Assembly (NCBI GenBank): GCA_011526105.1
Contig: WYAZ01000031.1
Location: 131,796 to 195,795, forward strand
DNA from: Deltaproteobacteria bacterium
GTDB lineage: Bacteria > Myxococcota > Kuafuiibacteriia > Kuafuiibacteriales > Kuafuiibacteriaceae
Direction: 5' to 3'
DNA length: 64,000 bases
Shown: piece after piece, positions 2,219 to 58,852 of the stretch
How positions within the stretch are numbered: the stretch's first letter is position 1
Layout of the letters: the number at the start of each line of letters is the position of its first letter
Made by a program: the position numbers and the translations under genes
The notes under the pieces: generated by a model
The model's database searches: none
What the model was told of the DNA's origin: nothing
The model's input: only the letters and a program-made list of their open reading frames with translations

Positions 2219-5200
2219 TTAGAAGAGGGAGCCGAGCTGAAAGAACGGGCCGCTTGCGTCGATCACGTCGCGGTCTTCTCCTCCAGGGACTCGGAGGAGG
2301 TGCGCATAACCTACGCGCACCTGCAGCCCGAGCGCATGGCCCAAGAGAAGATCGGCTCTCAGTTCCGCTCCGGCGCCGATGGCGAAAGCGTCGAAGAAGC
2401 CGTCAAACAGGGTGCTGGCCTCGAGGGTCTGAAAGACACGCCCGGTGTCCGCGAACAGTGCGGCATGGAACGCGCGAATGGCGAGAGGGGCGGTCCCGAA
2501 GCCCCGCTCCACGCGCCAGATGGGCGCGCGATACTCGAGAGAAGCATGGATGACCCCGAGACCAGCCAGGATGGAGTTCTGCATCCCGCGCAGTCCGAAG
2601 AAGTTCTGAGTCGTGGTCGTGAGGGCGCTCTGGCCGGCGGCTCCGCCGAGTCGGAAGAGCTCTACGAGGTCTGGCCCGAGCCCAGCGGAGATCGAAAGAC
2701 TCGCCGCAAGGACGTGATTGGGCAGCAGCGAAGCCGGCATGCTCAAATAGCCGCGCGCGTCGCCGCCGAGCACGATCTGTTCATAGTCGCTGCCGAGGCC
2801 CTTGGAGAGCCCCGAGATCGCGAACGAGAGCTCATAGCCGCGTTCGATGGAGATCGAGTGCGCGAAGGCCCGCACGTTCGAGTAGGAGTAGCCCAGCCGT
2901 ACGCGCGCGAAGCGGCCATCCGCCGGCAGACGGGCCGCGGCCTCGTAGACGTCGTCCGGGACTTCGTTGAGCGCCGAGCGACCCTCGATCTGATACCCGA
3001 GCGAGATCAGATGGCGCCGCCGAAAAGGCAACGAGACACTCAAACTGCCCAGCAGTCGAAGTTCGGTGTAGTCGAAGAGCCGGTTTCCTTCTGTGTCGCG
3101 AAGCACGAACAAGCGGGTGTCGGCGTCGCCGCCGATGGTGAAGGTCGGCTCGAAGGCATCGTTCTGATAGATCGCGCCGCCTCCGAAGAAGTTGGTCGAG
3201 GTGCGGTAGGTGCCCCAGACGAGGTAGGTCTGGGTCTCGAGCGCGTCGCGGCCGAAGTGGCTGAGGCGGATGAAGAGCTCGGTCTCGTCCGCGCTCATCT
3301 CGGGGATCAGATTCCAGTTGTCGTTGAAGGGCAGCAGCGTGCTCTCGACCGAGTACTCGCCCATCGTCCAGCCTTCGGGCAGCTCGAACGGCGCGGGGAC
3401 CGGGTGATCCTTGAAAGGCGCCGGCGGTGGCTTTTCCGGAAGCCCGAGGGAGAGTGCGGGCCAGCGCCTGGGTTTGTCGTCGAGGCCTTCCTCCGGGAGC
3501 AAGACACGCTCGATCTGGATCCCTCGCTCCGGTTCAAAGGGCACGCGATACACGTCGAAGCCGTCCGCGGAATAGCCTCGAAACACGATGGTGCGACCGT
3601 CCGGTGAGATGGAGGGTTGATAGGCCCCGGTCATCAGGTTGGTGAGTTGGAGCAGTCGCTGGGATTCGAGTTCGAAGGCGTAGAGGTTGTAGATCCCGGT
3701 TCGGTCGGAGGCAAAGACGAGCCAGCGCCCATCCGGCGACCAGGTGGGGTCCACGTCTTGAGCGCGATCGCGCGTGATGGTCTCGACGAGCGCGCCCTCG
3801 CGGTCGTAGATCACGACGTCGCGGCGGCCGGTACGAAACCGCGAAACGGCGATGCTTCGCCCGTCCGGCGAGAAACGTGGGTTCGAGAGCTGAACGTCCG
3901 GCTCGGCGGGCACGATGACCCTTGGGTGCAAGGTGAGGCCGTCTGACCCGAGGCGCGCGAGCACCAATCGATTGGCCGCGTAGGGCGTCTGCACGAACAC
4001 GATCGAGGTTCCGCTAGGCGACACGTCCGGATCACGCGCCCTCAGAGAGCCGGAGGGAGCCAAGAATTCCTTCTCGTAGCGCTCATCGAGCCTCAAGAGC
4101 TCGGTCTCCTCCTTCTTCAGGTCATATCGCAAGAGGCTGTTATGGAAGTAGAAGCGCTGATTGATCTCGGTCTGCTGGTAGTAGAAGGCGCTTCCGTCGG
4201 GCGTAAACGACAGCGCCTTCGAGAAGGTGTCATTGACGAGCACGGTGTCGTTTCCGCCATCGAGGTCGATGCGCCGAATCCGCGGTCCGTCTTTGGGGGA
4301 GTTCGTGGAGAAGAAGATGTGCTTGCCGTCTTTGGATATCTTCGGTCCCAGCAGATCTCCGCCGTATCGGGTCAGGCGGTCGGGGATGGTCTCGGCCAAT
4401 GTTGACGAGCGAACGAGCCGCTGTGTGAGCAGCGCGTCTTCCTTCATCTCCGCTTCGAAGGTGAGCCACAAGGCCTCGAAGGTGTCGTCGAAGGCCATGA
4501 AGGCCGCCCACCAGGTGAGGTACGGGACCGGGGTCTCGGCGTAGATGCGGTGGTACCGCATCAGCGCCTCCTCTCCGAAGCGATAGGCGAGCCAGGCTTG
4601 AAACCGCCCGCCAATGAAGTACGCCACGTTCGAGAACGGCCAATACGCGTAGGCGCGATAGCCCTGGTCGATGTGTGGGAAGCGGTCCTCGAGCGCGGCG
4701 ACGCGGATGACCATGTCGGCGTACGCTGAACGTCCGCGGCCCGCGCCGGAGCTGTAGGTCTCCTCGTAGACGGCGAGCCCTTCGGACAGCCACGCGGGGG
4801 TGTACTGGTTGAGCGCGATGTACTTGCCGAAGATGAATCGGCCGATCACCGGGAGCCCAAACACCATGTCCAGATGGACGATATGTGCGAGCTCATGGTC
4901 GATGACCGAGTAGAGCCAGTCGTCGTAGTCTTCGAGTCCGGAGACCTCGGTGGGGGCGGTGACATAGATCGTGATGATCTTGTTCGGAAAGACCGTCGCC
5001 GTCCCGTTGGCAAAATCGTTCTGGTCGTCGACGACGATTGTGATGCGTCCTTGGGGCCGGTAACCGAAGCGCGCGACCATGCCTGGGAGGAGCGACTCTG
5101 CGATGGCGGCCGAGCGCAGCGCGATGTGCTCATAACCCTTCGCGTGGACCACGTAGAAGTTCGGACTGGTCACGGCGCGATAAGGCACGTCCGGGTCGTA

Positions 5201-5281
5201 GCTGCCGGCGGCCCGTCCATCCCGAGGGGCGAACGAGAGTATGAGCGCAGCGACCGCGAGGGCTTTCGAGAGATCTCTCAT
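2219..5281 (-). CDS. Large outer-membrane protein: zincin-like HExxH domain + TolB-like PD40 beta-propeller + C-terminal Omp85/surface-antigen-like beta-barrel (start re-placed to ATG 5281, MRDLSKALAVAALILSF... signal peptide)
   Basis: HELAHIVHLD metal-binding motif; repeated SPDG(R/T)... PD40 motifs; C-terminal alternating hydrophobic strands ending in ...GSLF; signal peptide at chosen start; upstream 49 codons of track ORF are Arg/Pro-rich junk. Confidence 0.6.
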   Translation of the reverse strand: MRDLSKALAVAALILSFAPRDGRAAGSYDPDVPYRAVTSPNFYVVHAKGYEHIALRSAAIAESLLPGMVARFGYRPQGRITIVVDDQNDFANGTATVFPNKIITIYVTAPTEVSGLEDYDDWLYSVIDHELAHIVHLDMVFGLPVIGRFIFGKYIALNQYTPAWLSEGLAVYEETYSSGAGRGRSAYADMVIRVAALEDRFPHIDQGYRAYAYWPFSNVAYFIGGRFQAWLAYRFGEEALMRYHRIYAETPVPYLTWWAAFMAFDDTFEALWLTFEAEMKEDALLTQRLVRSSTLAETIPDRLTRYGGDLLGPKISKDGKHIFFSTNSPKDGPRIRRIDLDGGNDTVLVNDTFSKALSFTPDGSAFYYQQTEINQRFYFHNSLLRYDLKKEETELLRLDERYEKEFLAPSGSLRARDPDVSPSGTSIVFVQTPYAANRLVLARLGSDGLTLHPRVIVPAEPDVQLSNPRFSPDGRSIAVSRFRTGRRDVVIYDREGALVETITRDRAQDVDPTWSPDGRWLVFASDRTGIYNLYAFELESQRLLQLTNLMTGAYQPSISPDGRTIVFRGYSADGFDVYRVPFEPERGIQIERVLLPEEGLDDKPRRWPALSLGLPEKPPPAPFKDHPVPAPFELPEGWTMGEYSVESTLLPFNDNWNLIPEMSADETELFIRLSHFGRDALETQTYLVWGTYRTSTNFFGGGAIYQNDAFEPTFTIGGDADTRLFVLRDTEGNRLFDYTELRLLGSLSVSLPFRRRHLISLGYQIEGRSALNEVPDDVYEAAARLPADGRFARVRLGYSYSNVRAFAHSISIERGYELSFAISGLSKGLGSDYEQIVLGGDARGYLSMPASLLPNHVLAASLSISAGLGPDLVELFRLGGAAGQSALTTTTQNFFGLRGMQNSILAGLGVIHASLEYRAPIWRVERGFGTAPLAIRAFHAALFADTGRVFQTLEASTLFDGFFDAFAIGAGAELRADLLLGHALGLQVRVGYAHLLRVPGGEDRDVIDASGPFFQLGSLF

Positions 5282-5877
5282 CGAGCTGGACGCGAGGCGG
5301 ACTGGATCTCTCGGAGGAGGCGTTCGATGTCGGGCGCGGACCCCGCGCCGGCCGCGGTGCGAAAGCGGGCATTTTGTCTCGGAGGGTCGGTCACCGCGAC
5401 ACATAGGTGCTCGGCTTCGATGACACACGCCGCCGCTTTGGCGCCGGTGAGCCGCCGGAGCTCATCGGCTACGGACTGCGTAAGGGCCTCTTGCAGCACG
5501 AGCCGGTGGGCGAGCACGTCCACCAGCTTCGCGATGTTGCCAAAGCCGGGCACCATGCCCTTCGGGAGGATCGCGACGTGCGCGTGTCCTTTCATCGGCA
5601 GAAGGTGATGCGGACACGTGGACACGAGCGGAATGTCCGCCACGAGGAGTGGTCCCGACTGCTTGGTCGCGAAAAGGCGGCCGAGCGCCTCGGTGGGATC
5701 CGCATGATGCCCCGCCGTGAGCACATCGATCCACGCCGCTGCGGCCCGAGCCGGGGTGCCAACAAAGTTCTCGTCCGCCCGGTCGACGCCCAGCGCATCG
5801 AGAAGCTCCTCTATGGCCCGCTCCGCCCTTGGCCGATCGGGGCTGGGGCGTATCTTGGATCTGGAACGCCGAGCCAC
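5278..5877 (-). CDS. folE: GTP cyclohydrolase I
   Basis: 199 aa; STCPHHLLP...HAHV motif region matching FolE active site (CEHH-type), size correct. Confidence 0.85.
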   Translation of the reverse strand: MARRSRSKIRPSPDRPRAERAIEELLDALGVDRADENFVGTPARAAAAWIDVLTAGHHADPTEALGRLFATKQSGPLLVADIPLVSTCPHHLLPMKGHAHVAILPKGMVPGFGNIAKLVDVLAHRLVLQEALTQSVADELRRLTGAKAAACVIEAEHLCVAVTDPPRQNARFRTAAGAGSAPDIERLLREIQSASRPAR

Positions 5878-6052
5878 CGACGGAGGACACCATCGCCTTT
5901 CCCCGATGAGGTCAAGGCCCTGCCGCCGCCTCCAGGAGGGCTCAGGGGCTGCAATGGCCCGATATCATCCCCAGATCCTGGTGCCTTCGAAATCCCCAGC
6001 GAGACCCGGCCGTTGACAGAGCGGGTCGCGGCCCCTACTTCAGAGACCAGGC

Positions 6053-6718
6053 TTGGAAAGAAACCGCGTGAAACCCAACCAGCCTCACACTCCCTCCAGC
6101 ACTCCCCCCACCGTGCTTCGCTACGCCGAAGCGGTGGTTCCGACCATCCACGGGGATGTTCGATTGGTGGTCTTCAGGGAGCGCGGCTCCGAGGATCCCC
6201 ACGCCATCGAGCACGTCGCGATGGTCTTCGGCGAACCCGCCAAAGCCTCCGGCGCCGTCCTCGCGCGCGTCCACAGCGAGTGCATCACTTCGGAGGTCTT
6301 TGGCTCACTCAAGTGCGACTGCCGGGACCAGCTCCTCGAGGCGATCATTCGCATCCAAGAGGTTGGCCACGGCGTCATCTGCTACCTCCGCCAAGAGGGA
6401 CGGGGCATTGGGCTGGGAAACAAGATCCGCGCCTATGCACTGCAAGCTCAAGGGCTCGACACCATCGAGGCCAACCTTCACCTCGGCTTCGACGTCGATC
6501 TTCGGCGTTACGATGTTGCGGCGGACATGCTGAAGGACTTGGGGGTGCGAGCGGTCCGGCTGCTCACCAACAACCCGGAGAAGCTCGCCGGGCTTGCGGA
6601 AGCCGGGATTCAGGTCGTCGGGCGCGAGTCGATTGAGATCGAGCCCAATCGGCACTCCGAGAGCTATCTGTCCACCAAGCAGAAGCTCATGGGGCATCTC
6701 CTGGCGCTCGCTTCTTGA
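6053..6718 (+). CDS. ribA: GTP cyclohydrolase II
   Basis: 221 aa; RVHSECITSEVFGSLKCDCRDQL zinc-site motif, YLRQEGRGIGL, KIRAYALQ motifs typical of RibA. Confidence 0.85.
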   Translation: MERNRVKPNQPHTPSSTPPTVLRYAEAVVPTIHGDVRLVVFRERGSEDPHAIEHVAMVFGEPAKASGAVLARVHSECITSEVFGSLKCDCRDQLLEAIIRIQEVGHGVICYLRQEGRGIGLGNKIRAYALQAQGLDTIEANLHLGFDVDLRRYDVAADMLKDLGVRAVRLLTNNPEKLAGLAEAGIQVVGRESIEIEPNRHSESYLSTKQKLMGHLLALAS

Positions 6719-6726
6719 GTCTGGTC

Positions 6727-7446
6727 TCAGGCCTGGCCCGAACCCACACCCCAGCCCGGTATCGCGCCGCTGTCGTCCTCGCCGCCCCCTTGCTGCAAGA
6801 GCAGCGCGCCGAGCACGCCGTTGACGATTTCGATGCGCTTCGCTGGATCGGGCTCAGCGAGGATGCGTCGTCGGTCGTCCGGTTCTTGAACCGCCGCCAC
6901 CGCGATGGTGTCGGCCAAGACTCCGGCTTCGTCGATCTCGTTGATGCGCGAGAGCAGCTCTTCGTTGCCATCCCCGAGACTCACCACCACCCGCGTGCAG
7001 AGGCTCCTCAGGCCCGACATGGCGCGTGAGAGCTCCGGTGCGGAGGTTTCGGTGTGGTCGAGGATGAGCTCCGTCTTCACCCGACGGTAGGGGATGTCGA
7101 GCTGTGGCTGGAACTCCTCCACGACGCGCAAGCGACCGCAGCCCGCGATGAGCAGATCGAAGCGTCCGTCCGGGTAGCGTGTGGACCTCTGGATGAGACC
7201 GAGGCCGGCGTGGTCGAAGATCGAAGGCCGCCCGTGTGCATCCGGCGGCAGGCGCTCGTCGAGTGCCCCGAGCGCGATGAGCTCATGACCTTCGAGCGCG
7301 TCCTCGACCATTCGGCGATACCGGGGTTCGAAGATGTGAATGGGAAGGTACACGCCAGGGAGCAGCAGGATGTTCGACAGCGGAAAGAGCGGGACAGCAT
7401 TCAAGGCCTCGACCGGCACCGCGCGGTAGGTATCACTCACGGACAC
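6727..7446 (-). CDS. LON N-terminal (substrate-binding) domain protein
   Basis: 239 aa; PLFPLSNILLLPGVYLPIHIFEPRYRRMV is the Lon N-domain signature; no ATPase/protease domain. Confidence 0.7.
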   Translation of the reverse strand: MSVSDTYRAVPVEALNAVPLFPLSNILLLPGVYLPIHIFEPRYRRMVEDALEGHELIALGALDERLPPDAHGRPSIFDHAGLGLIQRSTRYPDGRFDLLIAGCGRLRVVEEFQPQLDIPYRRVKTELILDHTETSAPELSRAMSGLRSLCTRVVVSLGDGNEELLSRINEIDEAGVLADTIAVAAVQEPDDRRRILAEPDPAKRIEIVNGVLGALLLQQGGGEDDSGAIPGWGVGSGQA

Positions 7447-8842
7447 CTCGAGACGGGAAGATCTTTCCGGGGTTCAAGATGCCGGCCGGATCAAACACCT
7501 TCTTCACGTTCTTCTGGAGCGCGATCAGCGGCTCGGAGTGCTCGAGGGAGAGGAACTCGCGCTTGGTGAGCCCGACCCCATGCTCGCCGGAGATCGTTCC
7601 GCCCAAAGAGACGGTGAGGCTCATGATCTCGTGCACGGCCTGGTCCGCGCGCTCCTGTGCGTCTTCGTCGAACAAGATGTTCACGTGCAGGTTGCCGTCT
7701 CCGGCGTGCCCATAGGTGGCGAGCCCGAGCTTGTGCTTCTCTCCAATTCGCTTCGCGCCGTCGAGCATGGCGGGGATCCTTGAGCGAGGCACGACGATGT
7801 CTTCAGAGATCTTGCGCGGCGCAGTTTCGGAGAGCGTGACGGACAGCATGCGGCGTGGTTCCCACATCTTCTCGCGCTGCGCCGCGTCTTGGGCGACGAG
7901 CACGTCGATGGCGCCGTGCTCGGTGCACACGAGGGCGGCGCGTTCGAGATCCTCCATGCTTCGTTCGACGCTCGTTCCGTCTGTCTCCAGAATCAAGAGT
8001 GCGCCTGCATTCTCGGGGAAGCGCCCAGGGGTTTTCTCCCGCAGCGCCCCCAGGGCGTAGTCGTCGAGGAACTCGAGCGTCCGCGGGATCACACCGGCGG
8101 CGAAGATGGCGGTGATGGCGGACCCAGCCCGGCCGAGATCAGGAAAGCTGACGAGCGCGGTGGTCACCGCGGCCGGATTCGGGATGAGCCGGGTGGTGAT
8201 CTCCGTGATGACGCCGAGTGTTCCCTCGGAGCCGACCATCAGGGCGGTGAGGTCGTAGCCGGTGACGTGCTTCAGAGTACCCTTGCCGAAACGAAGGACC
8301 TCGCCGGTGGGGATGACCACCTCGACCGCCAGCACGTAGTTCTTGGTGACGCCGTACTTGAGCGCACGAGGTCCGCCCGCGTTGCAGGCCACGTTGCCGC
8401 CGAGGGAGCAGATCTTCAGGCTGTTTGGATCCGGCGGATAGAACAGACCTTCGGCCTCGACGTTCCGCATGAAGGTCTCGGTGATGATGCCGGGCTCGGC
8501 GACCGCAATCATGTCGGTCTTCGAGACGTCCTTCATCCGGGTCATGCGCTCCATCGACAGAACGATGCCACCCTGCACCGGCACCGATCCGCCCGACTTG
8601 CCGGTGCCGAGCCCACGCGGCGTGACCGGGACGCCATGTGCGGTCGCGGCGCGAAAGACCGCTTGAACGTCCGCGACGCCTTCGGCGCGCACGACGAGGT
8701 CGGGCATGGAGGGGGTCGAGAACGACCAGTCCTGGCCATAAGGGCTGAAGAGGTCGGGATCATCGATGAGCTTCGAGGGTCCGAGCGCGGCGGCGAGCAT
8801 TCGTTTGCAGGCGTCGATGGAGGCTGAAGACGGCCGGTTCAT
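7433..8842 (-). CDS. FAD-linked oxidase (GlcD / D-lactate dehydrogenase family); start re-placed to ATG 8842 (MNRPSSASIDACKRML...)
   Basis: FAD_binding_4 motifs (RGLGTGKSGGSVP..., C-terminal GGTISGEHGVGLTKREFL); overlaps neighbours by 4 and 14 bp (operon). Confidence 0.8.
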   Translation of the reverse strand: MNRPSSASIDACKRMLAAALGPSKLIDDPDLFSPYGQDWSFSTPSMPDLVVRAEGVADVQAVFRAATAHGVPVTPRGLGTGKSGGSVPVQGGIVLSMERMTRMKDVSKTDMIAVAEPGIITETFMRNVEAEGLFYPPDPNSLKICSLGGNVACNAGGPRALKYGVTKNYVLAVEVVIPTGEVLRFGKGTLKHVTGYDLTALMVGSEGTLGVITEITTRLIPNPAAVTTALVSFPDLGRAGSAITAIFAAGVIPRTLEFLDDYALGALREKTPGRFPENAGALLILETDGTSVERSMEDLERAALVCTEHGAIDVLVAQDAAQREKMWEPRRMLSVTLSETAPRKISEDIVVPRSRIPAMLDGAKRIGEKHKLGLATYGHAGDGNLHVNILFDEDAQERADQAVHEIMSLTVSLGGTISGEHGVGLTKREFLSLEHSEPLIALQKNVKKVFDPAGILNPGKIFPSRGVRE

Positions 8843-44982: not shown

Positions 44983-46257
44983 ATGAAGTCCGTCGAGCGT
45001 GGCATCCTGGCTGCTTTCGGGCCGGGGATCCTCTTCGCCGCGGCCGCGGTGGGGGTCTCCCATCTGGTTCAGTCCACCCGCGCCGGGGCGGACTACGGGC
45101 TCTCCTTGCTGCTGCTCGTGCTCCTCGCGAACGTGGTCAAGTACCCGGCTTTCCGTTTCGGGCCGCACTACGCGGCGGCGACGGGCACCTCACTGCTCGA
45201 AGGTTATCGGCGTCAAGGACGACCTCTGCTTCTGCTCTATCTCGCGCTCACCCTGGGGACCATGTTCGCGGTCTTGGCGGCGGTCACGATGGTGACGGCG
45301 GGGCTCGCACTTGCGGCGCTCAACATCGAGCTCAGCCCACTCGCGCTCGCTGCGGGGCTCCTCTTGATCTCCACCGCGCTGCTCATGGTCGGTCGCTATC
45401 GCCTGCTCGATCGTCTCACGAAGTTGCTGGTCGCGGTGCTCACTCTGTCCACGCTGCTGGCGACGGTCCTCGTCTTGCCTCGCGTGCCGTGGGCGAGCCT
45501 GACGTTCTGGCCCGGCGCCGAGCTCTGGACCCCGCGCTCGCTGTTCTTTGTGGTGGCCTTGGTGGGTTGGATGCCATCGGCGATCGATGTCTCGGTGTGG
45601 CAATCGCTGTGGACGCTCGCGCGGGGCGACGACACCTCGCATCGACCGAGCCTGAAGGAGGCGACGCTCGACTTCCACATCGGCTACTTCGGGACCACGA
45701 TCTTGGCGGTCTGTTTTGTGCTTCTCGGATCGGCGGTGATGCATGAGCGCGGGCTCGTCCTCTCGGACAGCCCCGGCGGCTTCGCGGCTCAGGTCCTGTC
45801 CCTCTATACCGAGGCGCTCGGCGAGTGGAGCCGGCCGCTCATCGGGGCCTCCGCGTTCGCGGTGATGTTCTCGACGATGCTCACCGTGCTCGACGGCTTT
45901 CCGCGCGCGCTGACCGTGCTCTCGGCTCGCTTTCGTGGTCCAGAGAGGCGCGGGGAGTTCGAGCTCGAACAGCCACGCGAGCGGCGTGTCTATTGGGTGA
46001 GTCTTGGGCTGCTCGCGATGGGCGCGCTCACCATCCTGTTCCTCTTGCCCGGCTCGCTGAGGGGTATGGTCGACTTCGCGACGACGCTCTCGTTTCTGAC
46101 CGCGCCGGCCCTGTCGCTTCTGAACCATCGGGCGGTGACGAGCGCGGACCTCCCGGTGGAGGCTCGCCCGGCCCGGTGGCTGCTCGTTTCGAGCCTCGTC
46201 TTCATCGTGGTCCAGGCGCTTCTCGCGGCGGTCTATTTGTACGTGCGCTACGCCTGA
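44983..46257 (+). CDS. Nramp-family divalent metal transporter (MntH-like)
   Basis: 424 aa; 11 TM; FGPGILFAAAAVGVSHL resembling Nramp GPG(F/W) TM1 motif. Confidence 0.65.
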   Translation: MKSVERGILAAFGPGILFAAAAVGVSHLVQSTRAGADYGLSLLLLVLLANVVKYPAFRFGPHYAAATGTSLLEGYRRQGRPLLLLYLALTLGTMFAVLAAVTMVTAGLALAALNIELSPLALAAGLLLISTALLMVGRYRLLDRLTKLLVAVLTLSTLLATVLVLPRVPWASLTFWPGAELWTPRSLFFVVALVGWMPSAIDVSVWQSLWTLARGDDTSHRPSLKEATLDFHIGYFGTTILAVCFVLLGSAVMHERGLVLSDSPGGFAAQVLSLYTEALGEWSRPLIGASAFAVMFSTMLTVLDGFPRALTVLSARFRGPERRGEFELEQPRERRVYWVSLGLLAMGALTILFLLPGSLRGMVDFATTLSFLTAPALSLLNHRAVTSADLPVEARPARWLLVSSLVFIVVQALLAAVYLYVRYA

Positions 46258-49736: not shown

Positions 49737-50174
49737 ATGAGCTTTTTCAAGAACGCAGCCTGCTGGCTCGGGTTGGTTGATCAAGGATGGGTGCGCGTCC
49801 GCGGGCCGGGCGTCGAGGCGGTCATCACCGGCGAGAAGGCCGAGGTGCAGCGCCTCATGTACGTGGTGCAGGAAGAGCTGATCCGAATCGTGAAGGAGGG
49901 AAGGGGACCACTCCGCACCAGGACGAGGAGATGCTCGAGCACGGTGATGCCGACGGAGTTCGACGAGCGAGATTCGCCAGACGTGCTGTCCGGTCGGGTT
50001 ACCGGGCCGCATCCGCGCTCCGCCTCTCGAGCGCGAAGGCTCGCAGCCCAGGCGCGATCGACGCGTGAGAACGGAGCACTTCGGTCCCTTGGGAAGTCGG
50101 TGAACGTGGTGACCGCAGATTCGGAGACGGAGCAGGTCCACCTCGGTGTGCTGCTCGAGATCACCGAGCAGTGA
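49737..50174 (+). pseudogene. Possible frameshifted small gene: first ~55 codons gene-like, then frame decays; continuation visible in +1 frame (49787..50068)
   Basis: Codon third-position GC bias is high for MSFFKNAACWLGLVDQGWVRVRGPGVEAVITGEKAEVQRLMYVVQEELIRIVKEG and then drops. Confidence 0.2.
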
Positions 50175-50180
50175 AGCGTG

Positions 50181-51446
50181 TCAGTCGCAAGCCTCGGGGG
50201 CCATGCCGTCGATCCAGGCGCGGATGAGTTCCACCGCAGGATCGTCACGGAGGCTTCGCCCGACCAGCGGCATGATCTCGCCCACCGTCTCTGAGGCCAT
50301 TCGGAAGTGCAAGATGGATTGCGCGGCGTTGCCGGGGACGATGTCGAAGCGCAGTCCGCCAGAGCCTGTTCCGGCCGAACCGGGTTCCTTGCACACGCCC
50401 AGACGAAACCGATCCGTCGTGTCGAAGCTCAAGAAGAGCTGCGAGGTCACGCCTTGGACGGAGTTTGGGTTGTGGCAATGCGCGCAGTTGATGTCGAGGT
50501 AGTCGCGGGCCGCGCGTTCGAGGCCGAGCTGATCGAGCCCCGTGGTTCCGGTGGTGGCGACCTCGCTGAAGTCGAAGGCTGGGTTGACATCACCGAGGTC
50601 CGGAAGGCCCTCGAGCCAGCCGAGACCGGCGAGATGTGTGAGTTGGTTGGCCGCCCCGCCCTCGTAGGGGAACGAACGATGCAGGTAGCGGGCCTTCGGA
50701 CCGAGCGGAGTCAGAAACGCGCCGCCCTCTGCGTTGAGCTGATCGTGGCAAGCGAAACACTGATTCCTCTGGGGGACCAGGTACTGAGCGGTCCTCGTCT
50801 GCCCACGCGGGTCGATGAAGGTGAGCGGCAAAACCGCGCCCCGCGCGAAGAAGTCTGCGTCCGAGCGGTCTTCACGCCACAGATACGGAAAGGCTCGCCA
50901 GCCGTCAGCGTACCGAATGAGCACGCGCGTCTCGAGAATGCGCACGTCCACCTCTGGGGTCCGGAGATCGGGGGCGATGGCAAACGACTTGACGATGGCG
51001 CTCCCCACCGGGAACTCGAAGCTGTCCGTGGGGTGGAACTGGATCTGACTCCCCGGCGGCAGGTAGATCGCACGCCACTTGAGGGCAAAGTCCGAGAACA
51101 GCGGCGTATTCAGGTCGTACGGAACGACGCCTTGGTTGTAGTCGGGCACACCGTTTCTCAGCCGGAAGAAGCGGAAGTCGGAGAGCAGGGGTGGTGGCTG
51201 CGGGTTGCTGATGTCGACCACCACCGGACCAAGCGGCGCATTCGCGTCCATCGGGGAGGCGTCGGCGGGGGCTGCATCCGTGACGCCGGCATCCGCATCA
51301 CTCGGCCTCGCGTCCATCGGGTCGGTCGCGCCGTCGCCCGGCGACACGTCGGCGGCGACGGCGGCGTCCGGACGCGAGTCCTCGCTCTCGCATGCGAGCG
51401 ATCCGAGGAGCGCGAGCCACAGGGCCATGATGATGAAGCGAGCCAT
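50181..51446 (-). CDS. Di-haem c-type cytochrome lipoprotein (two CxxCH: CFACHD, CAHCHN); start re-placed to ATG 51446 (MARFIIMALWLALLGSLAC lipobox)
   Basis: Lipobox, Asp/Ala-rich linker, two widely spaced CxxCH motifs; track N-terminus (His/Arg-rich) rejected; start overlaps stop of upstream gene as TGATG. Confidence 0.65.
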   Translation of the reverse strand: MARFIIMALWLALLGSLACESEDSRPDAAVAADVSPGDGATDPMDARPSDADAGVTDAAPADASPMDANAPLGPVVVDISNPQPPPLLSDFRFFRLRNGVPDYNQGVVPYDLNTPLFSDFALKWRAIYLPPGSQIQFHPTDSFEFPVGSAIVKSFAIAPDLRTPEVDVRILETRVLIRYADGWRAFPYLWREDRSDADFFARGAVLPLTFIDPRGQTRTAQYLVPQRNQCFACHDQLNAEGGAFLTPLGPKARYLHRSFPYEGGAANQLTHLAGLGWLEGLPDLGDVNPAFDFSEVATTGTTGLDQLGLERAARDYLDINCAHCHNPNSVQGVTSQLFLSFDTTDRFRLGVCKEPGSAGTGSGGLRFDIVPGNAAQSILHFRMASETVGEIMPLVGRSLRDDPAVELIRAWIDGMAPEACD

Positions 51447-53032
51447 CAGAATGGGAGCACCAGGTCCGCAATGGGGCCGTTCGTGAAGCCCGAGCAATCG
51501 AAGGGCGTAAACGGAGGGCCGGGCCGGAAGATGTCCGCGGTGGTCGGGAAGACCGACGGTGTTCCCTGCAGCATGTCCGCGAGCTTCGGCAGATCGAGCA
51601 CGGCAAAGGTGGCGCCGGTGTTCGAGCCCACGCAGATGTGGTTGTTGTTGGTGTTGCCTGCGGCCGTGGTGCCCGGCACCACCGTCTCCCCGATGCCGTC
51701 GTAGAGGTACGTGTCCACGGGGCGCTCGTCGGTGGGGAAGGTGTACAAGAACGAGATCAGCGCGCCGATCTCGCGCGCCACCGGGTCGAGCCCATCGGGG
51801 CTGGTGCCACTGCCGCTGTGGGTGTTGCCGTGGATCCATATCTCCTCGGTCCTGAAGTTGAACACCGCCGTCTCGTTGGTGAGGAGTCCCAGACCTGCGG
51901 TGGAGCCCACCACCTGATCGAGCGGAATGGCCCAGGCCCCCGTGGAGCTCGACACGGCGAGACCCGAGATCATCGCGATGTCCATGGTGTTGTTGTTCTC
52001 GTAGGTGTTGTCCGTGATCTCGACGCGCCTGGAGGCGAGGGCAAATGTTCCGGTGCCTGCGGGGATGGCGCTGACGGTGGTGCCGCTGGCGGCGAAGTTG
52101 GGTCGGTTGTTTTCGCGAACGATGTTGTCGTGGATCTTGATGTCGCGGCCCACGATCGGGTTGCCCGGCAGATCGAAGACCAGGAGGCCGCCCGTGTTGT
52201 CCTCGGCCAAGTTCTCGTACACGTCCGCGAACTGAGTGTTCTCGATCTCGATGCCCGCGACGTTTCTGCGCGCGATGTTTCGCCGCACGACAGCGTTGAT
52301 GCTCTGCCCGACATAGATGCCGGCATCACTCGCGTCGTACGCCTCGGAGTCTTCGAGGAGCACGTTGGTGCAGCGCACCGGGTAGATGCCGTACGCGCCG
52401 TTGGTCGACAGAGGTCCTCCGGACCACGTCACCTTGAGGAAGCGCACGATGACGTTGGTGCTGGTCTCGATCCGCAGGCCATCTTTCTTGGAGTCTGTGA
52501 TGGTCAAGTGACTGATCGTGAAGTTGTCACCGACCACATCGACGCCGTTGGCCTGCGCGGTCTGGCTCGAAAAATCGAGGATGGTCTCGTCGATGCCTTG
52601 GCCGGTGAGTGTCACCCCGCTCGCCCCTCGGATCGTGAGCGCGTTGTCGAGCGCGAAGCGGCCGTTTGCGAGGACGAGCGTGGTGGGTGCGGAGAGGCCG
52701 TTGACGGCGTCGAGCAGATCGCCGACCTCGGAGGGGAGGAACTCCAGACACGCGCCCGAGACTTCGGCGCAAGAGAACCGCGAGAACGGATCCGGCGGGA
52801 CGCCGGTGTCCGAAGGGCCCGCATCGTCTGCGGCGGCGTCTGACCCTCCGGTATCCGTCGCTCCAGCATCGACTCGGACGCCCGAGTCGATGCTCCCGGC
52901 GTCCGAGCGTGGTCCCGAGTCCCTCGCTGCGGCGTCGTCCGGAGTGCCGGCATCTTCGGTCGGCGTGTCATCCCCGCAGGCGGCAAGGGCCAGGGCCAAA
53001 GGGAGCAGGCAGCATAGGACGCGGCGTGTCAT
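51446..53032 (-). CDS. Right-handed parallel beta-helix repeat lipoprotein (NosD/pectin-lyase-fold-like); start re-placed to ATG 53032 (MTRRVLCCLLPLALALAACG)
   Basis: Lipobox, Asp/Ala-rich linker, repeated ~22-aa strands with N/D-x-I/V motifs (…NVLLEDSEAYDASDAGIYVGQSINAVVRRNIARRNVAGIEIENTQFADVYENLAEDNTGGLLVF…). Confidence 0.65.
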   Translation of the reverse strand: MTRRVLCCLLPLALALAACGDDTPTEDAGTPDDAAARDSGPRSDAGSIDSGVRVDAGATDTGGSDAAADDAGPSDTGVPPDPFSRFSCAEVSGACLEFLPSEVGDLLDAVNGLSAPTTLVLANGRFALDNALTIRGASGVTLTGQGIDETILDFSSQTAQANGVDVVGDNFTISHLTITDSKKDGLRIETSTNVIVRFLKVTWSGGPLSTNGAYGIYPVRCTNVLLEDSEAYDASDAGIYVGQSINAVVRRNIARRNVAGIEIENTQFADVYENLAEDNTGGLLVFDLPGNPIVGRDIKIHDNIVRENNRPNFAASGTTVSAIPAGTGTFALASRRVEITDNTYENNNTMDIAMISGLAVSSSTGAWAIPLDQVVGSTAGLGLLTNETAVFNFRTEEIWIHGNTHSGSGTSPDGLDPVAREIGALISFLYTFPTDERPVDTYLYDGIGETVVPGTTAAGNTNNNHICVGSNTGATFAVLDLPKLADMLQGTPSVFPTTADIFRPGPPFTPFDCSGFTNGPIADLVLPF

Positions 53033-53201
53033 CGGCCGACGTTTTTGCACGTTGGGTTCAATCATGGAAGGCCTGAGCCCCGGTGCAGTCCCTCGCGGCG
53101 GGTTTCCGTCGATATCTCAGGCAGTTCCGCCGAGCATCCGATGCGATATCCGGCCCGGCTCAATACGGTCACGCGCGGACGGGAAGGATGTGCAGCTTGT
53201 G

Positions 53202-55499
53202 ATGAGATTCCCACCGGGCCTTGGCGCCCTCTTGTTCGTTTCCTCGACCCTCCTCGGGTGCGGTGGTGAATCACCCACCGTGAGCCTCGTGGCGACGCCC
53301 AGTTCCGGCGTCGCTCCCCTCACCACCAGGCTCGACGCGAGTGGCAGCCGCGAACCCGAAGGGCGTGCGCTCGTATTCCGCTTCGACCTCGACGGGGACG
53401 GCACCTTCGAGACCGATTTCTCGAGCGAGCCCACCTACGAAGGCACGATCGCCGAGTCGGGCTCCTACCGCGCGCGTGTCGAAGTCCGGGTGGCGGAGGT
53501 CGCGGACGGGGATGTGGCGGCCTCCGAGGCCGCGATCGAGGTGAAAGCCAACCAGGCGCCCGTGGCTCGGCTCAGCCTCACGCCGCTCGAGGGAAAGAGT
53601 CCGCTCCTCGTGCGCCTCGACGCGAGCGCGAGCTCCGACCCGGACGAGGGGCCGGAGACGCTCACCTTCCGCTTCGACGTCGACGGAGACGGGGATTTTG
53701 ACACGGAAGCCGCCTCCACGGCCGCGATGGAGAACACCTATCGGAGCCCGGGGCGCTTCTCGGCGATGGTCGAGGTCCGAGACCGGCAGGGGCTGGTTTC
53801 AGTGGCCAGCGTGGATGGGCCGAACGTACTCGCCTCGGCGGACATCGCGGTCGACTCCAATCGAGACGGTCAAATCGACCAGGGCGACGAACTCGATGAG
53901 GAGACCTGGTCCCGCGATCGGGGCGCGGTGTTCTTGGCGAACCTGGACGATGATGACGGCGATGGCGAGCGGGATGGCCGAGAGGAAGTCTACACCGCCG
54001 GTAGCGACGCCCTCGATCTGACCCCGGTCCTCGTGCGCCAGAACGACCAGCTCTCGGACAACGCACGGGTCACGCTGACGGTGTCGCCGGCCGAAGGGGC
54101 CGCCTCGGTGCGCATCTTCATCGAAGATCCGGACGGGAGTCATCGCGTGCTGCTCGCGCCGAACGCCGCCTCCGCGGAGATCTCGGCCGCGCTTCTGCGC
54201 CAGGCCGACGCCAAGCTCTGGCTCGAGGGTTTGAGAACCCGCGTGCTCGGATGGGATGGTCACGTGACGCTCACGCTTCGTGTGGAGGATGGGGCGGAGG
54301 TCGATGAGGACGTCGTGGCGCTGCGGGTGTCGCCCGTCATCTTCCAGGACAACATCCTCGAGCCCTATCGGCTGTACCTGATGCGCATTTCGGACAACCG
54401 CCTCGGCCAGAATCTGCCGTTTTACAACGCGGTTCGCGACAACCTGCCGGAGACCATCGAGCTGTACGACGTCGATCAGTATCGATACGAGGCCGACCGC
54501 TGGGTGCAAGACACCATGCAGACCGGCTATCAGTCGATGCCTGGGCCGAACGGCACCCACCAGATGCAGACCTATCTGGCGACCGAGCGCCTCGAGTTCG
54601 GCAGCTCGCTTCAGACCTTGATCCCGCAGGAGCTGCTGAGGCCGGACCTCGGCTACTTCTACCCTGGGCGTTCGGTGGCCAGCTCGCTCAACTACGGAGG
54701 CAACCTCGAGGTGGCGCCGCCGCACTCGGCCGACGGCGTCGACTACCCCTTCGGCCGGATCGTCGTCGGTGGGGGCCGTCAGGGCACATTGATGGGCGTG
54801 CCCTACTCGGACGGGATGGGCGAGACGCAGCGCGCTTGGCTCGACGCGCAGGAGGTTCAGGGGCCTTCGCTTCAGTACTCCACCGAGTGGCTCGCGGTCG
54901 GCCACGTCGACGAGATCTTCCTGTTCGTCCCCAACCGCGCTGCGGCCGAGGGCGAGCGCGCCTGGAAGCTCATGATCGCTTCTCCAGATCTCGCGCGTCT
55001 CGCGCTCTCCCGACTGGTGGAGCAGGGCCAAGGTGACCTACCGGTCTTCTTGGGGCGCGAGACCCAGGCCACGGTCGCGGCCATCCTCAACGACCCCGGG
55101 CTCACGGAGTTCAACCGCCGGGCTCAGATCAGGATCGACGGCATCCGGGACGGGCTGGCCCAGGCGCTGGGGCTCACGGACCAAGACATCATCGAAGTGC
55201 CGGTCATGTACGAGTACTACGACTTCGACGGCTACGATCTGGCCGCCGCCTACAACCCGGGCATCCAGAACCTCATGGTCGCGGGCTCCACCCTCTTTAT
55301 CCCCGACCCGGAGGGTCCCGAGGTCGAGGGCGTGGACGTCTGGAAGCGAATGACTCGGGAGGTCACGGAGCCGCTGGGGGTGACCTCCATCTTCGTCGAC
55401 ATCTTCGAGAGTTATCACTTGAACCTGGGCGAAGCGCACTGCGGCACCGAGTTCGATACCGCCCCGTTTCCGACGCACTGGTGGGAGGTGGCCCAATGA
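53202..55499 (+). CDS. Secreted lipoprotein: 2x PKD domain + protein-arginine deiminase (PAD) middle and catalytic domains; start re-placed to ATG 53202 (MRFPPGLGALLFVSSTLLGCGG)
   Basis: C-terminal region aligns motif-for-motif with vertebrate PAD catalytic domain: NLEVAPP, WLAVGHVDEIFLFVP, LMIASP, LGEAHCGTEFD (nucleophilic Cys), terminal WWEV. Confidence 0.75.
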   Translation: MRFPPGLGALLFVSSTLLGCGGESPTVSLVATPSSGVAPLTTRLDASGSREPEGRALVFRFDLDGDGTFETDFSSEPTYEGTIAESGSYRARVEVRVAEVADGDVAASEAAIEVKANQAPVARLSLTPLEGKSPLLVRLDASASSDPDEGPETLTFRFDVDGDGDFDTEAASTAAMENTYRSPGRFSAMVEVRDRQGLVSVASVDGPNVLASADIAVDSNRDGQIDQGDELDEETWSRDRGAVFLANLDDDDGDGERDGREEVYTAGSDALDLTPVLVRQNDQLSDNARVTLTVSPAEGAASVRIFIEDPDGSHRVLLAPNAASAEISAALLRQADAKLWLEGLRTRVLGWDGHVTLTLRVEDGAEVDEDVVALRVSPVIFQDNILEPYRLYLMRISDNRLGQNLPFYNAVRDNLPETIELYDVDQYRYEADRWVQDTMQTGYQSMPGPNGTHQMQTYLATERLEFGSSLQTLIPQELLRPDLGYFYPGRSVASSLNYGGNLEVAPPHSADGVDYPFGRIVVGGGRQGTLMGVPYSDGMGETQRAWLDAQEVQGPSLQYSTEWLAVGHVDEIFLFVPNRAAAEGERAWKLMIASPDLARLALSRLVEQGQGDLPVFLGRETQATVAAILNDPGLTEFNRRAQIRIDGIRDGLAQALGLTDQDIIEVPVMYEYYDFDGYDLAAAYNPGIQNLMVAGSTLFIPDPEGPEVEGVDVWKRMTREVTEPLGVTSIFVDIFESYHLNLGEAHCGTEFDTAPFPTHWWEVAQ

Positions 55500-57532: not shown

Positions 57533-58852
57533 ATGGATCCTTCATCCATGGAATCAGTCAACCCCGAAGAACCTCCCGCGCGACGCGTCTCGAAGGCCGT
57601 TGTGCCTCCGCTCCCGTCCGGTGCGGACGATGAGCCCCCCGCGAGTCCGGCCCTCATGGCCGCCTTCGCGGAGCGGAGGACACCTTTCGAGATCTCCGCC
57701 CGCCGTATTCCGCGCATCAGCCCCGAGGCACGTCTGTACCGTCGCTTGCATCATCCGGGGGTGACCGACGCCGAGTGGAACGACTGGCACTGGCAAGCCA
57801 AGCACCGCCTGAGAAGCCTCGACCAGATCGAGCGCACCATCACGCTCACCGAAGACGAGCGCGAGGCGATCCAGAAGGGTGGTTCGATGCTGCCCATCGG
57901 CATCACGCCTTACTACATGAGCCTCATCCATCGCACGGATGCGCGGCAGGGCTTGCGGCGTACGGTCGTTCCGAGCCTGCAGGAGTTCGTTCGCATGCCG
58001 GGCGAGGCCGACGATCCGCTGGGCGAGGATGCTCACAGCCCGGTGCCGGGGATCGTCCATCGCTACCCCGACCGCATCCTGTTTCTCGCGCTGGACTACT
58101 GCTCCACTTACTGCCGCTACTGCACGCGATCACGCGTCGTCGGCGCCGGCGAGATCACAGCCAGTCCGGCGCGGCTCGAGATGGCCTTCGACTACATCCA
58201 GCGCACCCCCACGATCCGGGACGTGCTCGTCTCGGGCGGTGACCCTTTGTCGCTCAAGGACGAGAAGCTCGACTACATCCTGGGGCGGCTCAGGCAGATT
58301 CCGCACATCGAGTTCGTGCGCGTCGGCACCAAGATGCCGGCGGTGTTGCCTCAGCGCATCACGCCAGCGCTCGTGAAGATGCTGCGCAAGCACCACCCGG
58401 TGTGGATGAGCATCCACTTCACCCACCCGGACGAGTGCACGCCGGAGGCGTTTCGTGCGTGCGCGCGTCTCGCCGACGCCGGCATTCCGCTCGGCGCTCA
58501 GATCGTGCTCCTCAAGGGCGTGAACGACGACGTCGAAGTCATGAAGAGCCTGATGCATCGGCTCCTCATGATGCGAGTTCGGCCGTACTACTTGTATCAG
58601 TGCGATCCGATCTCGGGCTCCTCGCACTTCCGAACCTCGGTCGAGAAGGGCCTCGAGATCATCCGAGGTCTCCGCGGTCACACGACGGGCTACGCTTGCC
58701 CGACCTTCGTCATCGACGCCCCGGGCGGCGGTGGCAAGATCCCGCTGATGCCTGAGTACGTGGTTGGTCGCGAGGGCGACGATCTCCTGCTCCGCAACTT
58801 CGAAGGCAAGATCTACCGCTATTCGGATCCGCAGCCGGCTGGGAGTGCCTGA
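57533..58852 (+). CDS. kamA: Lysine 2,3-aminomutase family radical-SAM enzyme (KamA-like)
   Basis: 439 aa; CSTYCRYCTRS radical-SAM cluster motif in KamA context (…LALDYCSTYCRYCTR…), PLP-binding region, C-terminal KamA-specific extension. Confidence 0.8.
   Translation: MDPSSMESVNPEEPPARRVSKAVVPPLPSGADDEPPASPALMAAFAERRTPFEISARRIPRISPEARLYRRLHHPGVTDAEWNDWHWQAKHRLRSLDQIERTITLTEDEREAIQKGGSMLPIGITPYYMSLIHRTDARQGLRRTVVPSLQEFVRMPGEADDPLGEDAHSPVPGIVHRYPDRILFLALDYCSTYCRYCTRSRVVGAGEITASPARLEMAFDYIQRTPTIRDVLVSGGDPLSLKDEKLDYILGRLRQIPHIEFVRVGTKMPAVLPQRITPALVKMLRKHHPVWMSIHFTHPDECTPEAFRACARLADAGIPLGAQIVLLKGVNDDVEVMKSLMHRLLMMRVRPYYLYQCDPISGSSHFRTSVEKGLEIIRGLRGHTTGYACPTFVIDAPGGGGKIPLMPEYVVGREGDDLLLRNFEGKIYRYSDPQPAGSA

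Follow-up and report, generated by a model that had tools for sequence, protein, structure and literature searches.

The gene pair and its family

The stretch of DNA analysed here (the window, 64,000 nucleotides) comes from a Deltaproteobacteria bacterium placed in the Myxococcota (assembly GCA_011526105.1, contig WYAZ01000031.1, positions 131,796 to 195,795). On its minus strand lie two adjacent genes, one encoding a parallel beta-helix lipoprotein (hereafter BH) and the other a dihaem c-type cytochrome lipoprotein (hereafter CY). BH and CY form one translationally coupled operon, and both products are lipid-anchored here on long flexible tethers. The pair is a typical member of the catalogued and widespread TIGR03805/TIGR03806 pair, and not a new system. 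The two genes and their export features are the following:

51446..53032, minus strand: BH gene (beta-helix lipoprotein), 528 amino acids from the ATG at 53032, from the open reading frame (ORF) and TIGR03805 membership
50181..51446, minus strand: CY gene (dihaem c-type cytochrome lipoprotein), 421 amino acids, from the ORF and TIGR03806 membership; an independent gene call concurs
51444..51448, minus strand: TGATG overlap of the BH stop (TGA, 51446-51448) and the CY start (ATG, 51444-51446)
52976..53032, minus strand: BH signal peptide with lipobox LAAC (Cys19), translation MTRRVLCCLLPLALALAAC; Cys19 is invariant in the BH alignment
52781..52975, minus strand: BH disordered tether, residues 20-84, rich in Asp, Ala, Gly and Pro, from composition and an AlphaFold2 confidence score (pLDDT) below 50 for residues 1-70
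51195..51446, minus strand: CY signal peptide with lipobox SLAC (Cys19), followed by an Ala/Asp/Pro-rich disordered tether, from translation, composition and pLDDT below 50 for residues 17-60

In public gene calls, BH has an alternative start at an upstream ATG (53065, 33 nt further), which yields a form of 539 amino acids that is matched exactly in public contigs. Public metagenome contigs also carry both genes in identical copies, flanked by the same genes, and the closest homologues of the pair are found in Myxococcota, including Sandaracinaceae and Polyangiales.

Family membership is clear for both proteins. BH scores 347.4 bits against NCBIfam TIGR03805 (parallel beta-helix domain-containing protein; cut-off 141.5), with model positions 2-313 of 314 falling on residues 107-446. 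CY scores 345.4 bits against TIGR03806 (SO2930 family diheme c-type cytochrome; cut-off 313.3), with positions 2-314 of 314 on residues 85-415. In Pfam, BH matches generic Beta_helix and NosD repeats only, and CY gives only sub-threshold cytochrome c fragments. TIGR03806 was formerly the "HNE_0200 family", and the Shewanella examples of the pair are SO_2931 and SO_2930. The two families were built as partners, covering a two-gene pair or its fusion, with no function assigned. The window pair agrees with these families in gene order and strand, in its tight coupling and signal peptides and in the two haem motifs, with no essential difference, although the window genes are separate, unlike those of the fused members. 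The initial annotation had regarded the pair as an unusual redox module, but it is not an unrecognised one, since curated models exist for both families.

Its description of the locus itself holds, as both ORFs, the TGATG overlap and a lipobox (Cys19 in each protein) are present, and the linkers that follow are predicted to be flexible (pLDDT below 50). These linkers are rich in Asp and Ala (23% and 17% for BH residues 20-84; 21% and 26% for CY residues 20-72). The N-terminus of CY, MARFIIMALWLALLGSLAC, fits a PROSITE-type lipobox, and its Cys19 is at least 90% conserved among myxobacterial homologues. A twin-arginine signal, prompted by the TRR in MTRRVL, was ruled out: the arginine pair is not conserved, and the family consensus has a single Arg. 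BH is exported by the Sec route. Across the family, only about one third of members carry lipobox-like motifs, so lipid anchoring is a feature of certain lineages and not of the family. The lipoboxes and very long Asp/Ala-rich tethers are local features, typical of the Myxococcota members of the TIGR03805/TIGR03806 pair. The terms "surface-tethered" and "extracellular", which had been applied to the pair, go beyond the evidence, and the membrane face cannot be read from sequence.

A conserved and modular unit

The distribution of the pair was followed by scanning one genome per species, which gave at least 595 loci with a CY relative. The 80 best were examined, and 77 of these had enough upstream DNA to be evaluated. 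The 80 hosts include Myxococcota, Alphaproteobacteria (Phenylobacterium, Kordiimonas, Hyphomonadaceae), Gammaproteobacteria (Shewanella, Halieaceae), Bacteroidota and Leptospira, as well as Bryobacterales (Acidobacteriota), Planctomycetota, Hydrogenedentota, Binatia and others. Among clusters at 50% identity, CY relatives number 591 at E <= 1e-30 and 3939 at E <= 1e-10.

A BH homologue lies directly upstream of CY, on the same strand, at 71 of the 77 evaluable loci, so the co-occurrence that was to be checked extends across many phyla. At 13 loci, BH and CY are an intact single ORF, and one further fusion is frameshifted. Among the best 150 cluster representatives, fusions number 19. Because the Binatia fusion falls with unfused cytochromes of Bryobacterales and apart from the gammaproteobacterial fusions, fusion arose at least twice. 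In the 57 unfused pairs, the start codon usually falls within -10 to +25 nt of the upstream stop (50/57); a 1-nt overlap like the one described here occurs in nine and a 4-nt ATGA overlap in eight. Pairwise identities of BH and CY are correlated (r = 0.88). Near-obligate synteny, recurrent fusion and correlated divergence together indicate that BH and CY work as one physical unit. The synteny and fusion data also independently confirm the description of TIGR03805 and TIGR03806 as partner families. The frameshifted fusion (L014, 4701..7110, from a Haliea sp. metagenome-assembled genome, MAG) is split into three ORFs and is either a pseudogene or the product of an assembly frameshift error.

When the flanking ORFs at the 77 loci were clustered all against all and the neighbouring genes were surveyed with Pfam, no third conserved gene emerged. 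The commonest neighbour was a TonB-dependent receptor, at six of the 77. Judged from these genomic patterns, the pair is a self-contained unit in which BH and CY very probably bind each other.

CY is also found with other partners or alone. For instance, in a protein of 1013 amino acids (P0186), the CY module is fused to a glucose/sorbosone dehydrogenase (GSDH) of the pyrroloquinoline quinone (PQQ) type, and in a Chitinophaga-like MAG (L061, 7026..8918, plus strand), a GSDH with a C-terminal sorting domain of the type IX secretion system (T9SS) adjoins CY. This fusion and this adjacency suggest that the CY module serves as a portable redox partner. Unpaired CY genes adjoin a 3-keto-disaccharide-hydrolase-family protein (PF06439; L073, 7076..7717, plus strand) and an acetyl-xylan-esterase-family protein with a T9SS tail (L068, 2272..4116, plus strand), a faint carbohydrate theme among these exceptions. 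In Shewanella (L016, L030 and L031), a fused BH-CY gene encoding about 880 amino acids is followed directly by another CY gene, a stand-alone paralogue in which every key residue is preserved; in L016, the two genes lie at 4372..7023 and 7094..8275. This arrangement presumably corresponds to SO_2931 (the fusion) and SO_2930 (the stand-alone copy). A locus in Hydrogenedentota (L042) has BH, CY and a second CY. In three further proteins (P0181, P0182 and P0250), the SO2930 module is extended at its C-terminal end by a segment that holds a third CxxCH. This segment matches a Pfam cytochrome c model weakly in P0181 and P0250, but not in P0182.

The genes around the pair in the window encode a PAD/PKD protein, a HEAT-repeat protein, a Polyketide_cyc2 protein, small hypothetical proteins and a metallo-beta-lactamase-fold protein. 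The following stretch separates BH from the first of these:

53066..53201: 136 bp between the divergently transcribed BH and PAD/PKD genes, the presumed promoter region from the gene positions

No sigma-70-type consensus site was found in this 136-bp region, and the promoter and terminator scan was uninformative. The divergent neighbour (53202..55499, plus strand) is a lipoprotein of 765 amino acids (MRFPPGLGALLFVSSTLLGCGG...). Besides PKD repeats, it has the protein-arginine deiminase domain of Pfam (PAD, PF03068), a PADI catalytic domain of the animal type that bacteria seldom carry. On the other side, a convergent ORF of 145 amino acids (49737..50174, plus strand; MSFFKNAACWLGLVDQG...), for which no Pfam match is recorded, runs up to within 6 nt of the CY stop, so that a terminator would have no space between these two genes. 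Its N-terminus appears SepF-like, by eye only. Also by eye only, the ORF at 57533..58852 (plus strand), which has a CxxxCxxC motif (CSTYCRYC), resembles a radical SAM enzyme of the lysine 2,3-aminomutase type, and the ORF at 44983..46257 (plus strand) resembles an Nramp-type metal transporter.

Haem domains, beta-helix and the P460 resemblance

CY contains exactly two CxxCH motifs, QCFACHD (residue 230) and NCAHCHN (residue 321), and BH contains none. Its main features are listed below:

50661..51194, minus strand: haem-1 domain, residues 85-262, with about ten strands of beta-sheet and the first CxxCH at its end; candidate divergent P460 fold
50745..50759, minus strand: haem-binding motif 1, C230-F-A-C233-H234, invariant in 272 of 272 members
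50988..50990, minus strand: Lys153 codon; Lys in 263 of 269 members, aligned with P460 Lys70
50184..50561, minus strand: haem-2 domain, residues 296-421, helical and class-I cytochrome c-like, from AlphaFold2 helices
50472..50486, minus strand: haem-binding motif 2, C321-A-H323-C324-H325; Cys and His invariant in 266 of 266 members, His323 present in 249 of 266
50271..50273, minus strand: Met392 codon (motif MPLxGRS); Met is found in 265 of 266 members and probably serves haem 2 as its sixth ligand

The invariance of both sites shows that they are not chance motifs, which the first reading had named as grounds for its refutation. Composition-preserving shuffles of CY point the same way: in 200,000 shuffles, two or more CxxCH never occurred, and one occurred in 338. 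Besides the haem motifs, Glu172, Arg174, Arg125, Trp183, Trp190 and Arg382 are near-invariant among the 266-272 CY members. Apart from the CxxCH histidines and Met392, there is no other invariant Met or His, and His323 reaches 94%. The AlphaFold2 model (pLDDT 82.8) places a beta-sheet at residues 94-224, followed by the first CxxCH and a helical C-terminal domain that holds the second.

Weak matches to Pfam Cytochrome_CBB3 cover the haem-2 region in all 29 members searched, and likewise weak ones to Cytochrom_C do so in 28 of them. Met392 follows His325 by 67 residues, as is usual in class-I cytochromes c, and haem 2 is probably a common class-I relay haem with His/Met ligation. As haem 1 lacks a conserved His or Met to act as sixth ligand, it is a candidate reactive haem. 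His323 was considered as a distal ligand of haem 1 and downgraded, as Ser, Tyr or Gly replaces it in about 6% of members.

Several family assignments for CY were tried and rejected. The peroxidase-like (CCP_MauG) or DUF1111 type had been suggested at the outset, but hidden Markov model searches were negative: the window protein has no hit to either, CCP_MauG (PF03150) was reached by five of 29 members at E >= 0.028, DUF1111 by none, and CY is a full TIGR03806 member. The design is nevertheless shared, since in CCP, MauG and DUF1111 proteins a periplasmic chain of about 35-40 kDa likewise unites a His/Met haem for electron transfer with a reactive one. However, both of their haem domains are helical and class-I, whereas haem 1 of CY sits on a beta-sheet domain, and there is no sequence homology. 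MtrC/OmcA membership was likewise rejected, as PF22113 gave 15.3 bits against 30, over the CxxCH segment only, and CY has two haems, not about ten. A Foldseek search of the CY model against the PDB gave no significant match (best E 0.1).

Among the weak top matches of that search were six chains of cytochrome P460 or cytochrome c'-beta. The corresponding Pfam family, PF16694 (Cytochrome_P460), gave sub-threshold hits in 18 of 29 members, covering nearly the whole model in several. In the best of these (P0075), residues 86-209 fall on model positions 20-123 of 125 at 22.5 bits; the window CY scores 12.6 bits. A P460 profile was then compared with the haem-1 domain by hhalign, using a bait sequence confirmed as PDB 2je2 (N. 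europaea P460) and 26 homologues, with these results:

Haem-1 domain profile against the single P460 sequence: E 0.008, probability 5%, 56 columns
Haem-1 domain profile against the P460 profile: E 4e-4, probability 35%, 103 columns, collinear
Haem-1 and P460 profiles with CxxCH removed from both: E 3e-4, probability 40%, 44 columns
Haem-2 domain against the P460 profile: E 1.2e-3, probability 19%, 33 columns, CxxCH region only
Reversed-query controls against P460: E 0.15-0.26, probability below 1%
Beta-helix decoy controls against P460: E 0.14-0.31, probability below 1%

In the alignment, Lys153 (FPVG-S/T-x-I/V-x-K) falls on P460 Lys70 (FRDGTVTVK), Arg125 on Arg44, and CxxCH on CxxCH. Lys70 of the N. 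europaea protein is the lysine cross-linked to the haem. The candidate likeness to P460 and cytochrome c'-beta (PF16694; PDB 2je2, 6hiu, 7ead) would comprise a beta-sheet domain with CxxCH near its end, no conserved His or Met as distal ligand, and a shared motif, F-x-x-G-[ST]-x-[IV]-x-K-x-[LF], with Lys153 at the Lys70 position. P460 proteins are small stand-alone homodimers. The CY domain differs in being about 20-40 residues longer and in having an attached class-I haem c domain and a beta-helix partner, and the similarity lies under every curated or significance threshold. The profile match persists when CxxCH is taken out and exceeds both the reversed and the decoy controls. Evidence from Foldseek, sub-threshold Pfam hits and controlled profile-profile comparison is weak but convergent, and homology of the haem-1 domain to the P460 fold is, on balance, slightly favoured.

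For BH, the predicted fold is well defined:

51695..52714, minus strand: right-handed parallel beta-helix core, residues 107-446, from the TIGR03805 extent; AlphaFold2 pLDDT above 90
52094..52426, minus strand: conserved rungs, a candidate binding groove or cytochrome-docking face, with W203, Y214, Y217, D236, Y240, Q243, E262, E264, N265, F286, N308, N312 and F313

The model (mean pLDDT 86.4) consists of stacked short strands and has 36 beta-helix matches in the PDB at E <= 1e-3 (Foldseek). AlgE4, a mannuronan C5-epimerase, comes first (E = 1.5e-7, 18% identity), ahead of PL6 lyases, RbmB and polygalacturonases. Together with the Pfam Beta_helix and NosD matches, this bears out the pectin-lyase-like parallel beta-helix recognised initially. 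The residues of the conserved rungs are at least 93% conserved in 72 sequences from many phyla and lie on successive rungs, along with an Asn ladder. No Cys, His or Met is conserved in BH across these 72 sequences, which makes a Cu site, or any other redox centre of a classical kind, improbable.

The fold is shared with families of known identity, to which BH does not belong. NosD (TIGR04247/PF05048), AlgE4 and AlgG (CASH-type) are all right-handed parallel beta-helices with PbH1-type repeats, like BH, and N308-N309-R310 of BH is an NNR-type motif resembling the NNRSYEN of AlgG. Unlike BH, no member of the NosD and C5-epimerase families is paired with a cytochrome. NosD proper does not fit: BH has only the generic Pfam repeats and fails the NosD equivalog (TIGR04247, 20.7 bits against a cut-off of 300), and the nosZ, nosF, nosY and nosL context is missing. 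An identity as a mannuronan C5-epimerase or PL6 enzyme (AlgE4, AlgG) was rejected as well. The epimerase catalytic motif is YG(F/I)DPH(D/E), or DPHD, and the corresponding rung of BH, Y214-G-I-Y217-P-V, has no Asp or His; the fold alone is similar.

Proposed function and competing explanations

The best explanation, to which we assign a probability of about 60%, is that the pair is an obligate haem-enzyme unit with CY as the redox core and BH as a non-redox partner. The pair would most likely be a periplasm- or membrane-tethered haem enzyme. CY would form the redox-active core of this unit, with a haem-1 domain that is probably derived from the P460 fold and has Lys153 at the position of the cross-link lysine. 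The lack of a conserved sixth ligand and the probable P460 ancestry of its domain suggest that haem 1 is a reactive, substrate-facing haem, and the lack of conserved Cys, His or Met and of any recognisable cofactor site in BH suggests a non-redox partner. The Tyr/Asp/Glu/Gln groove of BH might bind and present the substrate, as its fold neighbours bind polyuronate glycans, or might instead dock the haem-1 domain. Haem 2 (CAHCH and Met392) would exchange electrons with soluble periplasmic carriers, and electrons would thus pass among a substrate at the interface of haem 1 and BH, haem 2 and the respiratory chain. A more specific proposal is that SO2930 cytochromes hide a divergent, Lys-bearing catalytic haem domain of the P460 type, hard-wired to a class-I relay haem and forming with BH an unrecognised class of periplasmic haem enzymes. 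This extension is tentative and rather doubtful.

Several observations weigh against the haem-enzyme explanation. For the P460 link, the Foldseek matches have a probability of at most 0.30 and a target TM-score of about 0.3; no family member reaches the PF16694 gathering score of 27 (best 22.5 bits); a profile of the haem-1 domain only, searched against PDB sequences, did not retrieve P460; and the signal of the haem-2 domain indicates that CxxCH alone yields some similarity to P460. The choice of the subunit that holds the substrate site follows solely from the lack of cofactor-type residues in BH, and the gene neighbourhoods hold no clue to a substrate. Literature searches on either family gave list-type mentions only and no published function, and searches of both proteins and profiles against PDB sequences gave no solved structure and nothing useful. 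The links to carbohydrate enzymes suggest one kind of substrate and the likeness to P460 another, and neither settles the matter.

The roles of the two proteins could also be reversed, with BH as the catalytic subunit, active on carbohydrates or uronates through novel redox chemistry or a cofactor or metal in its Tyr/Asp/Glu groove, and CY serving only to conduct electrons to the respiratory chain through its two haems, much as in cytochrome-linked sugar dehydrogenases. Such an arrangement would be in keeping with the polyuronate epimerases, lyases and polygalacturonases among the fold neighbours, with the conserved acidic and aromatic groove, and with the placement of CY fused to (P0186) or next to (L061) a PQQ-type GSDH and next to the hydrolase-family (L073) and esterase-family (L068) proteins. 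It is nevertheless unlikely. BH conserves neither Cys nor His nor Met and hits no cofactor-binding family, the catalytic Asp and His of the AlgE/AlgG type are absent, and a plain electron wire needs no conserved 140-residue beta-domain with an unligated haem. Moreover, the loci are not carbohydrate loci in general, and TonB-dependent receptors occur at only six of 77. That TonB-dependent receptor, found downstream of the pair, might instead point to metal trafficking or uptake, with BH as a NosD-like periplasmic metal chaperone and CY changing the redox state of bound Cu or Fe. The Pfam NosD match, at 39 bits, does exceed its gathering score, and the cluster of Tyr and carboxylates could bind a hard metal ion. 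However, the TIGR04247 score (20.7 bits against 300), the lack of adjacent nosZ, nosF, nosY and nosL, the lack of conserved His, Met or Cys for Cu, and the absence of NosD structures from the 50 Foldseek matches listed make this the least probable explanation, together with a maturase role for CY.

In that maturase role, CY would act like MauG or MbnH and oxidise a conserved Trp or Tyr of BH into a protein-derived cofactor. Dihaem enzymes paired with protein substrates include MauG with methylamine dehydrogenase and MbnH with MbnP, and here too a dihaem protein is encoded beside a putative target, which has invariant W203, Y214, Y217 and Y240. Against this, CY has no CCP_MauG homology (best E 0.028, in five of 29 members), stand-alone CY copies occur, and permanent fusion to the target in two lineages, along with the GSDH fusion, fits a stoichiometric partner better. 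Scarcely more probable is a role for CY in extracellular electron transfer. The Shewanella literature does no more than list SO_2931 as a dihaem lipoprotein cytochrome of the outer membrane, assigning it no specific function, and the gene is among those deleted in "all-OMC" (outer-membrane cytochrome) strains; the lipoprotein signals and long tethers of the window pair would also suit such a role. Yet the literature retrieved attributes no phenotype specifically to SO_2931, CY, with its two haems, shows no above-threshold homology to MtrC/OmcA, genes for porin-cytochrome partners are absent from its surroundings, and about two thirds of members have no lipobox. Most host lineages (Caulobacterales, Cytophagales, Saprospiraceae, Leptospira and Bryobacterales) are not known to respire metals.

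A comparable concept is found in the extracellular multidomain redox proteins of polysaccharide degraders, such as the cytochrome domains of the Cbp2D/Cbp2E type and X183 of Teredinibacter turnerae (PMC10916295). In these, as in the pair described here, exported c-type cytochrome domains are joined to carbohydrate-enzyme-like domains with no assigned activity, but domain types and architecture differ and no homology to BH-CY is evident, although it was not tested for.

For the window itself, the outcome is the routine annotation of a typical family member. For the family, what is gained is a quantified record of synteny and fusion, the partner swapping with a PQQ dehydrogenase, maps of conserved residues and the P460 hypothesis. 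The pair is common (at least 595 species-level reference genomes; 591 clusters of 50% identity at E <= 1e-30) and tightly conserved, and it includes SO_2931, which is routinely counted among the outer-membrane cytochromes in Shewanella studies. A single unit fused at least twice, a modular cytochrome able to join a PQQ dehydrogenase and a possibly P460-like haem-1 domain, with a conserved lysine at the cross-link position, open this hypothetical pair to direct biochemical tests. If the proposed enzyme class is real, its members may be, for example, oxidoreductases of hydroxylamine, nitric oxide or other small molecules, or may carry out a haem-driven oxidation of a glycan held by BH. It would then be common among aerobic heterotrophs as far apart as Myxococcota, Bacteroidota and Shewanella.

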